Positions 1 through 18,000 of a stretch of DNA of 64,000 nt are shown here, piece after piece. How positions within the stretch are numbered: position 1 is the stretch's first letter; every line of letters begins with the position of its first letter. Position numbers: made by a program. The DNA comes from a virus (lineage: Duplodnaviria > Heunggongvirae > Uroviricota > Caudoviricetes). The stretch lies in the IMG/VR virus record IMGVR_UViG_2718218139_000007. One strand, given 5' to 3'.

Positions 1-3000
1 TTAACGCGTATTTTTCAGCGACTCCTGTGCAAAATACGCTGTTGCTTTTTTTAATATATCTCGCTCAAGGCGAGCTTCATTTAACGCCTTACGCAGTTGC
101 AGAATTTCAGATTCCAGTTCAGCCACCGTGCGGGAACCAGGAGTACCGAGCCCTTTTCTGGCGGCGGTAACCCATTGTCCTAAAGTGCCTTCAGGAAGAG
201 ATAATCGGGAAGCGCCTTCACTGATCGAAAGTTGATTTTCAAGAACCGTTCTGACAGCTTCGGCTTTGAACTCTTTAGAGTAACGTTGGGTTTTTCTGCT
301 CATTATTAGCTCCTTCTGATGCCATTCTATTTCAGGAAGGAGTGTCCGTTAAACTCAGGCTACCTCATGTATTGTGAAATTACTGACGGAAAAAGCATTA
401 CGTACATGATCGCCGGGTTAAACAAAGAATATGGCGATGTGGTGGAGTCCGGGCTGCTTTTTGCGGATCCAGTTGTTGTGGAACGTGAGACTGACGAGCT
501 TATAGAAAAAGCTATTGCTTTCAAGCACGCGTATCGTCAGCAATACCAATATTACTTTGCAGATAAACAAATGTCTGCCAGGGGTTCGTATGAGTATCGA
601 TGCACTACGATGGGCTAAAAAGGTGAAAACCGGCAGTTCATCCAGTAAGTCAGTATTGACCTGGCTTGCTGATATGTGCGGTGCCGATTTGTGTGCATAC
701 CCGTCTGTATCTGCACTGGCAGAAGTAACGGAACTGAACAAAAAGACTGTGCAGGACAGCTTACGACACCTGATGGAGATTGGGTTAATTGTTGATACCG
801 GTGAGAGAAAAGGCAGAACAAAGCAAATTGTGGTGTACCGACTTATCGGTGTAGAAGAAAGTGTTGCCGAGCCTGAATACACCCAAAAACGGGAGTCTTT
901 AAAGGTGGGTAAAATTGGTGCTGTTAATAAAAACAGTACCGAAAATGGTTATGTTTCAGCACAAAACAGACCCAAAAACGGAACTCTTAGCTGCATGGAA
1001 AATAACCAAAGACACCCAAATTTTCCATCAAAGACACCCAAAAACGGATCACGGAACCCAAAGGAACCCAAAGATCTAAACCCCACACATAACGCACGCG
1101 AGAGTGCTCCGACCAGTGAGCAGGAAGTTTTGTCGTTACAGGCAGCCCCCCCTGTATTCCTGTATGGCCTGAGCGAACCCATCGGAAAATTCCCGATGAG
1201 CGATAGCTGGTATCCGTCACGGGATTTTCGACGACGGGCTGCGTTGTGGGGGATGGCTTTGCCGGAGACAGAATTTACACCTGCTGAACTTGCCGCCTTC
1301 CGGGACTACTGGGCAGCGGAGGGGAAAGTGTTTACGCAGATTCAGTGGGAGCAGAAATTCGCCCGTCACGTAAATCACGTCAGGGCGCAGGTTAAACCAG
1401 TCAGCAAAGGGGTAAACCATGCAGCAGCACCAGGTGGCACCGCATCACGGGCAGTTCAGGAAATTCGGGCAGCACGTGAGCAGTGGGAACGTGAAAACGG
1501 ATTTATCAGCGACGGAAACGGCCTGGAAGCTGTGGGAACTCATGGGGGAGGTTTATTCGAACCGCTGGACCCAGAAGAACGGGGCCGCACCTTCGAAGCT
1601 CTGGATTGCACAGATTGGCGCGATGACTGAGCAGCAAATCCGGCAGGTCTGCCGCCAGTGCATGGACCGCTGCCGGGCGGGTGAAACATGGCCTCCGGAC
1701 CTGGCTGAGTTTGTGGCACTGATTTCGAAAAGCGGAGCCAATCCATTCGGTCTGACGGTGGATGCTGTGATGGAGGAGTACCGCCGCTGGCGCAATGAGT
1801 CCTGGCGATACGACGGAAGTGATAAGTACCCGTGGTCTCAGCCTGTGCTGTATCACATTTGCCTCGAGATGCGTTCAAAGGGGATTGAGCGCCAGATGAC
1901 CGAAGGGGAATTAAAACGGCTTGCAGAACGGCAACTGACGAAATGGGCAAAGCATGTTAGTAACGGCCTGAGCGTTCCGCCAGTCCGGCGACAACTGGCG
2001 GCCCCCAAACGCCCGTCGGGGCCAACGCCAATTGAGTTGCTGAAACAGGAATATGAACGCCGGAAAGCGGCTGGTTTTGTTTGAGTTGAGAAGTGATTTT
2101 TTACCGGGAGGAAATTTATGGAGACTGTTTTTGACGCACTGAAAGCGATGGGAAAAGCCACGTCGGTAGAGCTGGCTGCGCGACTTGATATCAGTCGTGA
2201 AGAAGTACTGAACGAGCTGTGGGAACTGAAAAAGGCTGGCTTCGTTGATAAAAGCGTATACACCTGGCGTGTGGCTGATAACAACGTTCAGCAGGAACAG
2301 CCAGCGCCAGAAGAAACCACCACGGCAACGCGAGTGCGTGTAACTTTTGATGTCATTCCCGTAGAAACACCGGACAAATTTTCGCTGACAGGTCATGCAG
2401 AAGGTATAAATCTGCAGATTATGGACAATTACGGATATCCGGCAAGAGCCGGAAAAAGCATGCCGCCTCTAATTCTCAGTGGAAGATGGACTTGATTATA
2501 CTCATTGCATTGTCAGAAATAGTTATCCATTAAAGGCTGGCTATTCCAAACAGGATGTTGATTACAAAAATGTAATCAACATGTAAGGTTTATACTCTTC
2601 AATATGCGTATAATTTTCCTTATTTTGTTGACTTTAAATAACAAGCTATGCACGAGGTAAAGTCGGATAAGTTTATCTGGATGTAATATATATTATTTGT
2701 AGTGTTTATAACTTTATTTCATGATAACCAATAAAAGGAGTTTTTTATGAGGAACATAATGGCAGGTTTTTTAATATTCCTGTCTTCTGCTGCTTATGCT
2801 GATATCAATCTGTATGGTCCTGGTGGCCCGCATACAGCCTTGCTTGATGCAGCCAAACTTTATGCCGAAAAAACAGGTATTATAGTGAACGTTCATTACG
2901 GCCCACAGAACAAATGGAATGAAGATGCCAAAAAAAATGCAGATATCTTGTTTGGCGCATCAGAACAATCTGCTCTGGCTATCATTCGGGACCATAAAGA

Positions 3001-15000: not shown

Positions 15001-18000
15001 TTCGATCAGTGAAGGCGCTTCCCGATTATCTCTTCCTGAAGGCACTTTAGGACAATGGGTTACCGCCGCCAGAAAAGGGCTCGGTACTCCTGGTTCCCGC
15101 ACGGTGGCTGAACTGGAATCTGAAATTCTGCAACTGCGTAAGGCGTTAAATGAAGCTCGCCTTGAGCGAGATATATTAAAAAAAGCAACAGCGTATTTTG
15201 CACAGGAGTCGCTGAAAAATACGCGTTAATCGAACAATGGCGACAACAATTTCCCATTGAAGCGATGTGTCAGGTATTTGGTGTATCCAGGAGCGGTTAT
15301 TACAACTGGGTACAGCATGAACCCTCAGACAGAAAACAAAGTGATGAGCGGCTAAAACTGGAGATTAAGGTGGCACATATCCGCACTCGCGAAACATATG
15401 GAACCCGGCGGCTCCAGACGGAGCTGGCAGAGAATGGCATCATCGTTGGTCGTGACCGACTGGCACGTCTTCGTAAGGAGCTAAGGCTACGCTGTAAGCA
15501 GAAACGCAAGTTCAGAGCGACTACGAACTCGAACCACAATCTGCCAGTTGCGCCAAATCTGCTGAACCAGACGTTCGCTCCTACAGCACCAAATCAGGTC
15601 TGGGTGGCGGACCTGACGTATGTTGCCACACAGGAGGGATGGTTGTACCTCGCTGGCATCAAAGATGTTTATACGTGCGAAATTGTCGGCTACGCCATGG
15701 GAGAGCGCATGACAAAAGAGCTGACAGGTAAAGCCCTGTTTATGGCGCTCAGGAGCCAGCGCCCACCTGCCGGGCTAATCCACCACTCTGATCGAGGTTC
15801 ACAGTACTGCGCATACGATTACCGGGTCATACAGGAGCAGTTTGGTCTGAAAACATCAATGTCGCGTAAAGGTAACTGTTACGACAACGCTCCGATGGAA
15901 AGCTTCTGGGGAACGCTGAAAAATGAGAGCCTGAGCCACTATCGTTTTAATAACCGGGATGAAGCCATCTCAGTAATACGGGAATACATTGAGATTTTCT
16001 ACAATCGTCAGCGTCGTCACTCTCGTCTGGGGAATATCTCCCCGGCAGCCTTCAGGGAAAAATATCATCAGATGGCTGCTTAAAAAAAGAACAAATGGTA
16101 GTGTCCGCTATTGCCAGTACACCTCAGAACTGTGGCTGTTTGGCAAGCAGTACAAGGCGGAGGACATGTTACGTGAAGCCATTGGCGGGCTGGCTTCACG
16201 TCCGGAAGGGTTTGTGGTGTACACAACCACCCAGTCAAATGAGCCGCCTGCCGGGGTGTTCAGGCAGAAACTGCAGTACGCCCGGGATGTGCGCGACGGT
16301 AAAATTCATGATCCACATTTTCTGCCGGTGATTTTTGAGCATCCTCCTGAAATGGTGGAGAGCGGTGAGCACCTGCTGATGGAAAACCTCGCCATGGTTA
16401 ACCCGAATCTCGGTTATTCGGTGGATGAGGCCTTTCTGTACCGGGAGTATCGTAAAGCCCGGGAAGAGACTTTCCGCGGTTTCATGTCAAAACACGCCAA
16501 TGTGGAAATTGGTCTTGCCCTGCGTTCTGACCGCTGGGCAGGGGCGGATTTCTGGGAGCAGCAGGGCAGGCGCGTCAGCCTGGACGATATCCTGCAGCGC
16601 GCTGATGTGGTGACGGTGGGGATTGACGGCGGGGGCCTGGATGATCTGCTGGGAATGTACGTGACTGGCCGTGACAGGGAAACCCGCGAATGGCTGGGCT
16701 GGGGCCATGCCTGGGTGCATGAAACCGCGGTGGTCAGACGGAAGAGTGAGGCATCCCGGTTTCAGGATTTTGTGGCCTGTGGAGACATGACGATTGTCCG
16801 TCGGGTCGGGGATGACACGGCGGAAGTGGCGGAGTATGTGCGTCGTATTCATGAGGCTGAGTTACTGGATCATATCGGTATTGACCCGTCAGGTGTGGGG
16901 CAGATTCTGGATTCACTGGCGGAAGCCGGGATCCCCGATGAGAGTGTGGTGGGGATAAGCCAGGGCTGGAAGCTGGGCGGGGCCATCAAAACCACCGAGC
17001 GCAAACTGGCTGAGGGAGTGCTGGTGCATGGTGGTCAGCCACTGATGGCCTGGTGCGTTGGCAATGCCCGGGTGGAGCCTAAAGGTAACGCCATTCTTAT
17101 CACCAAACAGGCCAGCGGACGGGGAAAAATTGACCCTCTGATGGCGCTCTTCAATGCGATGTTCCTGATGTCCCTGAATCCGGAACCGAAAAAGAAAGCG
17201 TATGAGGTTTTTTTCATATAACCCTGCTCACCCTGTAACCATCATGAACCGCTGCGGCGGTTTTTTTATTTTCAGGAGGCTGATGTGACTCTTAAACGGG
17301 CCTGTTCCCTGCTGACGGTGAAATCCTTCAGTGAGGATGAACGGGTGATCACCGGGATTGCGTCAACGCCTTCTCCGGATCGGGATGGTGACATCCTGGA
17401 GCCGGAGGGGCGGAGTTTGGCAGTACGATCCCGTTTCTCTGGCAGCATGACCATTCCCGCCCTGTAGGCCAGTGTACGGTGCGTCGGGTCAGGGAAGGGC
17501 TGGAAATCACGGCAATGCTGGTGAAGCCGGAGCCGGGGATGCCCTCCCAGATGGCAGCCCGGCTGGATGAGGCCTGGGCTGCCATTAAGACCGGGCTGGT
17601 CAGGGGGCTTTCTGTGGGCTTCCGGCCCCATGAATACACTTATCTGGACGGAGGCGGACTGCATTTTCTGCGCTGGGAGCTGATGGAGGTGTCTGCCGTC
17701 ACCGTGCCCGCGAATGCGGAATGCACCATCCGGACCATTAAATCTTTCGACCGCCCGTTTTCTGCCGCGTCCGGCAACCGGAGACCGGTGGTGAAAATCG
17801 CATCTTCTGCCGGCGCTTCGGCACAGTCAATAACCTCTTTTCATAAGGAAAAGTCAGCAATGAATACTGGTGAACAGATTAAAAGTTTTGAAAACAAGCG
17901 TGCGGCGCTGGCAGCCTCCCTTGAGGAGATCATGAACAAAGCCGCAGAGGAAGGCCGCACACTGGATGTGGAAGAGGAAGAGCACTACGACAACACCGCA

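Follow-up and report, generated by a model that had tools for sequence, protein, structure and literature searches.

The 14.5 kb of prophage DNA lying between two inverted IS600 copies at the start of the window (the whole 64,000-nucleotide stretch analyzed here) has, in all likelihood, a simple history: one copy is a plain insertion in terL, the other marks the joint of a deletion, the segment between them has not been flipped, and the prophage that carries both is cryptic. The window opens in this prophage (prophage A), a degraded lambdoid element beside ompW of an attaching-effacing Escherichia coli, represented by assemblies GCA_003015365.1 and GCA_003015325.1. The first of these agrees with the window without a mismatch over 12,495 nt, and the DNA upstream of the window was read there.

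Two identical IS600 copies in opposite orientation

The first-pass annotation had noted two IS600-like copies in opposite orientation, and both are indeed IS600 by sequence: copy 1 at 1-367 on the minus strand (orfA at 1-303, minus strand) and copy 2 at 14863-16126 on the plus strand (orfA at 14927-15229; orfB from an ATG at 15265 to 16083). Copy 2 is complete at 1,264 bp, and matches with 100% identity and 100% coverage E. coli elements annotated in RefSeq as "IS3-like element IS600 family transposase." The translated ORFs contain an HTH_Tnp_1 domain in orfA (E = 1.5e-20) and an rve (DDE) domain in orfB (E = 3.2e-26). An A7G slippery motif is found at 15178-15185, with orfB in the -1 frame and open from 15166; the annotation of identical IS600 copies in RefSeq mentions a "programmed frameshift." The element begins TGAGGT and ends ACCTCA, giving TG...CA termini, and its terminal inverted repeats are imperfect, matching at 20 of the first 30 positions. 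IS600 belongs to the IS3 group of the IS3 family and is numerous in Shigella; it has also been amplified in non-O157 Shiga-toxigenic E. coli (STEC). In its length, nucleotide identity, orfA/orfB organization, frameshift site, ends, and 3-bp duplication at copy 2, the element found here is IS600 without any difference; copy 1 alone lacks a duplication, owing to a later deletion.

Copy 1 had been described as partial. It is cut within the window, where 367 nt at the IRL end remain because the window begins inside it, but the full 1,264 bp is present in GCA_003015365.1 (L014, 6987-8250). An alignment of the two full-length copies gave 0 differences over 1,264 positions, the comparison that the first-pass annotation had called for; this identity tells little of their age, however, since 100% identity between IS600 copies is also seen across many unrelated E. 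coli genomes. The arms of the inverted repeat, 1-368 and 14862-15229, are 368 nt long, 100% complementary, and separated by a spacer of 14,493 nt. The pairing of 368 with 14862 is a chance match of one flanking nucleotide, and the true IS boundaries are the end at 367 and the start at 14863. The window contains exactly two occurrences of the 29-nt IS end, where chance would predict 0.

Copy 2 is a simple insertion that splits terL

The 5' part of terL (14302-14862, plus strand) encodes 187 codons with the TerL_ATPase domain, and its frame stops at a TGA supplied by the first IS bases, 14863-14865. The 3' part (16127-17221, plus strand) encodes the TerL_nuclease domain, and its reading frame continues that of the 5' part when the IS and a single GAA are taken out. 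A target-site duplication, GAA, flanks the element at 14860-14862 and 16127-16129. Deletion of the IS and one GAA in silico yielded an uninterrupted, 550-aa TerL with TerL_ATPase at residues 63-224 and TerL_nuclease at residues 275-532 in one reading frame. It is identical to an annotated intact TerL at 543 of 553 positions, with the residues across the junction unchanged, and in a nucleotide alignment to intact terL the two halves share exactly 3 bp where they meet. Copy 2 thus arose by simple transposition, with codon 187 of terL as the target, and separates the ATPase from the nuclease part, as the first-pass annotation had proposed on the strength of the GAA duplication. Its further statement, that this insertion alone inactivates packaging, needs qualifying: the insertion would by itself abolish the terminase, but it is only one of at least six lesions in the prophage.

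The idea that codon 187 is a hot spot for IS600, raised by some 17 short draft contigs that end exactly there, was unsupported. These contigs came from an exact-product look-up, which returns only contigs ending at that position; none contains IS sequence, and two run one base further, into intact terL (GAAC). The third base of the codon varies (GAA/GAG) from one terL allele to another, even between two alleles of a single genome. The terL/IS600 junction had 0 matches in the viral contigs scanned.

Copy 1 lies at a deletion joint between int and ydaT

Reading upstream of the window for the far end of copy 1, a check that had been proposed, disclosed the full copy, a GAT flank, an integrase remnant, and ompW. 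Copy 1 has no target duplication, its flanks being GAT on the left and TGT on the right, in contrast to the GAA/GAA of copy 2. To its left the prophage integrase gene survives as its final 420 nt, adjoining chromosomal ompW; the translated remnant matches positions 52-169 of the 172 positions of Pfam Phage_integrase. An intact 376-aa integrase adjoins ompW in O145 RM9872 and 2013C-4974. To its right, at 368-618 on the plus strand, is the 3' remnant of a ydaT-like gene, the last 83 of 183 codons, with a new ATG at 367-369 made from the last IS base and the flank. The ydaT-like assignment rests on a weak, precomputed match to Pfam YdaT_toxin and on an intact homologue annotated as "toxin YdaT family protein."

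Because the left neighbor of copy 1 is the 3' end of the integrase gene and not the other part of the ydaT-like gene, the copy marks a deletion. On an intact relative, its breakpoints fall at 13296 and 20287 (L016), so that 6,990 bp is missing; in the relative this interval holds the N terminus of int, xis, exo, dicB, the repressor gene (cI), cro, and the N terminus of ydaT. Copy 1 therefore joins the last 420 nt of int to the last 83 codons of ydaT, with 6,990 bp deleted. Copy 1 had earlier been described as cutting a gene that immediately precedes the O-like gene, and it does abut the truncated ydaT-like gene there; the locus is rearranged, however, and is not the site of a simple insertion.

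How the deletion arose is a matter of inference. Homologous recombination between direct IS600 copies in int and ydaT, which would leave one copy with unmatched flanks, is the mechanism that we favor, at about even chances. Almost as likely, at a little less than even chances, is an IS-flanking deletion from a single copy, made by the transposase or by an IS-excision enhancer (IEE). Synthetic int::IS600 junctions with a GAT duplication and ydaT::IS600 junctions with a TGT duplication were used as queries for the parental insertions, and a search of 5,426 complete E. coli genomes turned up neither; the nearest to a parental junction was an independent int::IS600 insertion, 100 bp away, in strain 2013C-4830.

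The missing flank might also have been carried off by an inversion or translocation involving a third IS600 copy elsewhere, the int-to-ydaT segment being moved and not lost. Partners for such an event exist, as related STEC genomes contain up to 35 IS600 places, and the reading covered 20 kb around the locus. Against this, the outer flank of copy 1 is the 3' end of the integrase proper to ompW, in its native orientation, the reciprocal junctions occur in none of the 5,426 complete E. coli genomes searched, and a plain internal deletion explains the data most economically; we consider a third-copy rearrangement highly improbable.

The segment between the copies is in its ancestral orientation

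Identical 1,264-bp repeats in opposite orientation, 14.5 kb apart, are an arrangement across which RecA-dependent recombination is possible in general, and the missing target duplication at copy 1 could be taken as a trace of such an event. An inversion of the replication-to-lysis segment would, however, have swapped the inner flanks of both copies, and copy 2 still lies between GAA and GAA and between the two halves of terL. The odd flank of copy 1 is integrase DNA, and is accounted for by the deletion. From ydaT onward, IS-free relatives align collinearly with the segment, and the gene order ydaT'-O-P-Q-lysis-terS-terL agrees with that of relatives on both sides. Both long assemblies, GCA_003015365.1 and GCA_003015325.1, have the same isomer at the junctions available in each, with the segment in native orientation; both are consensus sequences, in which a minority isomer would not show. 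An inversion would also have no evident effect in a prophage whose repressor, early promoters, and integrase are gone and whose terL is split.

With GAA still duplicated at copy 2 and the terL halves contiguous there, it is ruled out that an inversion between the pair became fixed. The 14.5 kb is in its ancestral orientation, and the inverted arrangement of the surviving copies is incidental. It is very unlikely that the pair has mediated, or regularly mediates, a flip of the segment. In its proposed refuting test the first-pass annotation took a missing duplication at copy 1 as a pointer to inversion; copy 1 does lack one, yet the flanks of copy 2 are intact, and the pointer misled. In an inverted IS pair, a missing duplication at one copy is insufficient evidence for inversion; the flanks of the partner decide. 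We find it extremely unlikely that the O-P-paa-Q-lysis segment flips often in the population as a switch or moves as a composite element; were this so, the flipping switch might alter expression of the paa adhesin gene or of the Q-dependent late genes and tRNAs, but none of the evidence gathered speaks for it.

The weakest reading, to which we give next to no credence, is that everything from one IS600 copy to the other is a single composite transposon, which moved as a whole and took paa and the lysis cassette along. Tn5 and Tn10 are composite transposons with inverted terminal IS elements, and the pair here resembles them in geometry, two inverted IS around a DNA segment, with an adhesin gene among the would-be cargo; it differs in having no common outer target duplication (GAT versus GAA) and no sign of transposition as a unit. 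On the outside, the copies border int and the 3' part of terL, both from this one prophage and in native order; the interior DNA aligns collinearly with the corresponding prophage of relatives without these IS copies. Flanks and interior are thus one collinear prophage, so the unit never moved, and past movement as a composite transposon is refuted by this flank analysis.

Related prophages

Prophages with paa and nleA are found beside ompW in O145:H28 RM9872, O121:H19, and 2013C-4974; they share the site and the integrase, and are 99.8 to 99.9% identical over ydaT-O-P-paa. The RM9872 prophage differs in that int through ydaT is intact. In other lineages IS600 has inserted independently elsewhere in the same prophage region, in the same orientation: in int in 2013C-4830 and, in O121:H19, between ydfC and an adjacent gene. 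These two thus differ from the prophage described here in the positions of IS600 within the region, and the set of deletions is peculiar to each lineage. Neither the copy 1 int/ydaT junction nor the copy 2 terL junction was found among the 5,426 complete E. coli genomes; matches to the junction regions with 100% coverage proved to be put together from separate pieces, and their IS600 copies lie elsewhere. Among predicted products, those specific to the junctions at 367-618, 2118-2495, and 14302-14865 are on record, and that of the chimeric ORF at 319-618 is without a record. A literature search on the assembly accessions returned nothing relevant.

IS-inactivated lambdoid prophages of enterohemorrhagic E. 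coli (EHEC), such as the defective Sp prophages of O157 Sakai with IS629, and IEE-promoted deletions at IS3-family elements have been described (PMC9397093 and references therein). The prophage beside ompW resembles these defective prophages in its type III secretion effector cargo, in having an IS in an essential gene, in its IS-adjacent deletion, and in several other deletions; it differs in that the element is IS600, whereas theirs is IS629. Prophage decay driven by IS elements is already known from attaching-effacing E. coli; the finding is an instance of it, and adds a further case in which IS600 expansion has remodeled a prophage in these bacteria.

Decay and cargo of the prophage

The features between the two copies are on the plus strand. 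The replication genes span 590-2084 and encode an O-like protein with a DnaT domain (590-1630), within which three iteron-like 24-nt repeats occur at 876-1054, and a lambda P-like protein (1623-2084). The remainder of the bracketed segment (2118-14305) includes a truncated DUF1627 gene and paa (2747-3505), so that the adhesin gene is cargo inside the prophage; hokD, a DUF968 gene, and rusA; the Q antiterminator gene (6295-6984); a tRNA cluster, Met-Lys-Arg (7180-7420); a gene for a 616-aa esterase-like protein with a SASA domain (8504-10354); holin, lysozyme, Rz-like, and perC-like genes; an HNH endonuclease gene (13096-13626); and terS (13742-14305).

Besides the terL insertion and the int-ydaT deletion, at least four more deletions bring the number of lesions to at least six. 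One, of about 0.95 kb, is at approximately 2321-2329 in the window; another removes about 4.2 kb from portal to tape measure, and two of about 1.45 kb and about 2 kb affect the tail genes. Part of the portal, all head-completion and tail-tube genes between it and the tape measure, and much of the J/lom/tail-fiber region have been lost. The IS600 pair is, on this reading, a side effect of the spread of IS600 in a cryptic prophage that lost many other functions before or since, and forms no functional unit. With int truncated, xis, the repressor gene, cro, and the early promoters lost, terL split, and structural genes deleted, the cargo is bound to the chromosome unless other prophages help, and the prophage should be labeled in annotation as a cryptic remnant.

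A search with the 240 nt proximal to ompW identified no attL/attR repeat in the window. Farther downstream, nleA is followed by a second integrase remnant and, beyond that, by nleH, nleF, nleG, and espM1; the nle genes and espM1 are putative cargo of prophage A.

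IS600 copies in prophage A

A well-known insertion sequence occurs twice in a cryptic prophage at ompW: one copy is a simple insertion in terL, and the other is the scar left by a 7-kb deletion. Nothing in the sequence points to inversion, the pair is not a functional unit, and the locus represents an already known kind of IS-driven prophage decay. A repeat search of window positions 1-17000 found one inverted pair, 1-368 versus 14862-15229, which is 368 nt long and 100% complementary, with 14,493 nt between its arms. The outermost nucleotide of the match is a chance match of flanking bases; copy 1 (minus strand) ends ...CCTCA at 367, and copy 2 (plus strand) starts TGAGG... 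at 14863. Exactly two matches to the 29-nt IS terminal sequence are present in the 64-kb window (0 expected).

Copy 2 is 1264 bp long (14863-16126) and is 100% identical across that length to RefSeq elements annotated "IS3-like element IS600 family transposase." It encodes OrfA (100 amino acids; HTH_Tnp_1, E = 1.5e-20) and an OrfB portion of 272 amino acids with HTH_21 and rve/rve_2/rve_3 domains (rve, E = 3.2e-26). A slippery A7G motif lies at 15178-15185, the orfB frame (-1) is open from 15166, and the ends are imperfect TG...CA inverted repeats; all the defining features of the IS3 family that are testable here are present. Near-full-length IS600 is found in 1,613 of 5,426 complete E. coli genomes, at a maximum of 35 places per genome. 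The observation made in the first-pass annotation (an inverted pair, the limits of copy 2, and its GAA flanks) is confirmed, and its interpretation is partly supported.

Two products specific to this locus, a truncated TerL and a truncated DUF1627 protein, are recorded in assemblies GCA_003015325.1 and GCA_003015365.1, where the locus lies on contigs of 5.2 Mb and 1.38 Mb, respectively. The GCA_003015365.1 locus (L014) is identical to the window at all 12,495 shared bases, window position 1 being L014 position 7884; that of GCA_003015325.1 (L003) is 99.995% identical across 20,564 nt, with one 1-nt gap. Copy 1 is full length in L014 (1264 bp, 6987-8250) and has no differences from copy 2, an identity that is uninformative on age because IS600 elements are 100% identical across many unrelated genomes as well.

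Copy 2 is a simple insertion in terL

GAA flanks copy 2 on both sides, at 14860-14862 and 16127-16129. When the IS and a single GAA are taken out, so that 14302-14862 runs directly into 16130, the result is a 550-amino-acid open reading frame with TerL_ATPase (63-224) and TerL_nuclease (275-532) domains. This restored TerL is identical to the intact 553-amino-acid TerL of strain FORC_028 at 543 of 553 positions, and the residues across the joint are the same in both (...GTLIDELWLFGK...). Aligned as nucleotides to an intact terL, the two flanks overlap by 3 bp, 14862 falling at position 2014 and 16127 at position 2012. The duplication, the restored frame, and the overlap bear out a clean insertion.

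About 17 short draft contigs from other assemblies (L004-L012), with terL alleles 91 to 97% identical to the window, end exactly at codon 187, the site of the IS600 insertion, and contain no IS sequence; two terL alleles of one genome end there in GAA and GAG. A hot spot for IS600 at this codon was rejected, as contigs end there without IS sequence. The ends probably reflect a polymorphic base at which the assembly graph breaks, with a shared repeat after it, together with selection by the exact-product look-up.

That this insertion alone inactivates packaging, as had been proposed, holds in principle but misdescribes prophage A, because the prophage carries several further deletions. Relative to the O145 and O121 prophages, about 0.95 kb is deleted at 2321-2329, where the joint has a 9-nt overlap; the DUF1627 gene is truncated and a fimbrial-protein pseudogene is lost. 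Relative to the FORC_028 prophage, about 4.2 kb is deleted at ∼21000, starting inside the portal gene and stopping inside the tape-measure gene, with loss of the genes for connector, head closure, tail tube, and chaperone; about 1.45 kb at ∼25810-25823 (a tail-assembly gene and J at its 5' end); and about 2 kb at ∼27808-27810 (J at its 3' end, lom, and the tail-fibre gene at its 5' end). No IS was found at the joints of these last three. A run at 17411 reads G4 in the window versus G5 in GCA_003015325.1, which shifts the frame of a protease-capsid fusion gene (a 580- instead of a 645-amino-acid open reading frame); the frameshift may be real or a long-read homopolymer sequencing error. Prophage A is dead many times over.

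Copy 1 marks a 7-kb deletion

Left of copy 1, L014 contains the chromosomal genes cls-kch-yciI-tonB-yciA-yciB-yciC-ompW, followed by 420 nt that code, on the minus strand, for the last 139 residues of a tyrosine integrase; these match Pfam Phage_integrase from position 52 to 169 of the 172-position profile. In O145:H28 RM9872, which has the same prophage at the same site, ompW is followed by an intact 376-amino-acid integrase, xis, exo, DUF1482, dicB, and ydfC, and then by an HTH repressor, cro, ydaT, the O-like (DnaT-domain) gene, and P. On this reference locus (L016), the two flanks of copy 1 fall at 13296 and 20287, so that 6,990 bp have been lost. The loss takes in 237 codons at the N-terminal end of int, everything up to and including cro, and codons 1-100 of ydaT, which has 183 when complete. 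The flanks are unlike (left ...CCCGGAT, right TGTATTG...), so there is no target-site duplication; the first-pass annotation had raised the possibility of a matching one, and the extended sequence shows none. Copy 1 had also been thought to cut a gene just upstream of the O-like gene; ydaT is indeed truncated there, but at a deletion joint rather than by insertion.

An ATG at 367-369, made of the last base of copy 1 and the first two flanking bases, opens an 83-codon frame across what is left of ydaT; gene callers report this frame as a protein. Used as a junction-specific look-up key, this product was found in three assemblies only: GCA_003015325.1, GCA_003015365.1, and the draft GCA_002486255.1. 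The terL 3' product is on record only in GCA_003015325.1, and the terL/IS600 junction was absent from all complete E. coli genomes and IMG/VR contigs searched. The IS600 events are private to a small lineage.

We infer the deletion mechanism from its footprint, which two routes would leave exactly. Homologous recombination may have taken place between an IS600 copy in int and another, in direct orientation to it, in ydaT. Such an intermediate is plausible because other lineages have IS600 inserted in this 7-kb region of the same prophage in the orientation of copy 1: 2013C-4830 (L019) has an independent minus-orientation copy in int, 100 bp from the copy 1 site, and O121:H19 2014C-4423 (L002) one between ydfC and its neighbour. 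Alternatively, transposase or the IS-excision enhancer could have deleted DNA flanking a single copy, for which the reference is PMC9397093, where it cites Kusumoto et al. Both presumed parental junctions (int::IS600 and ydaT::IS600) were sought in complete genomes and neither was found; we therefore give recombination an about even chance and single-copy deletion a slightly smaller one. The ompW prophages of 2013C-4830 and 2014C-4423 also hold IS3, IS2, and ISEc8 and have deletions of their own. This locus decays repeatedly and independently across lineages.

Arrangement of the segment between the copies

Recombination between inverted copies swaps their inner flanks, and would here part the halves of terL and abolish the GAA/GAA match of copy 2. 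As a state fixed in the assemblies, inversion of the 14.5-kb segment, for which the inverted pair had been seen as a possible substrate, was rejected: the match is kept and the terL halves still lie on either side of copy 2. Barring one internal deletion, the segment is collinear from 368 on with the O145 prophage, which is IS-free (99.8 to 99.9% identity). It follows the canonical lambdoid order and orientation: int points leftward, and O, P, Q, lysis, terS, terL, and tail genes point rightward. Direct reading covered the junction on the terL side in GCA_003015325.1 (L003) and that on the ydaT side in GCA_003015365.1 (L014 and L022); a second long-contig place with the same neighbours is taken as the ydaT-side junction of GCA_003015325.1. 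As far as junctions were available in each, both long assemblies are the same isomer. A composite transposon was rejected, as the outer flanks are unlike (GAT versus GAA) and both are prophage A DNA.

Other features in the window

Within the O-like gene, at 876-1054, a 24-nt sequence (AAnAnACCCAAAAACGG...) occurs as three direct repeats with spacings of 89 and 66 nt, which resemble the iterons of a lambdoid origin. There are two prophage tRNA clusters, Met-Lys-Arg at 7180-7420, downstream of Q in prophage A, and Met-Arg-Arg at 56218-56468 in a second prophage; their flanks are 93 to 94% identical to each other. The stretch 29821-42800, which is 98.4% identical to strain JNE132847, carries type III secretion system effector cargo and remnants: nleA (30124-31446, minus strand), an integrase remnant, nleH1-2 (33259-34179), nleF (34245-34814), nleG (36971-37618), espM1 (37802-38392), and IS630/IS3 remnants. 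It is closed by the integrase (41429-42715, minus strand) of the second prophage, which has a late region similar to that of prophage A.
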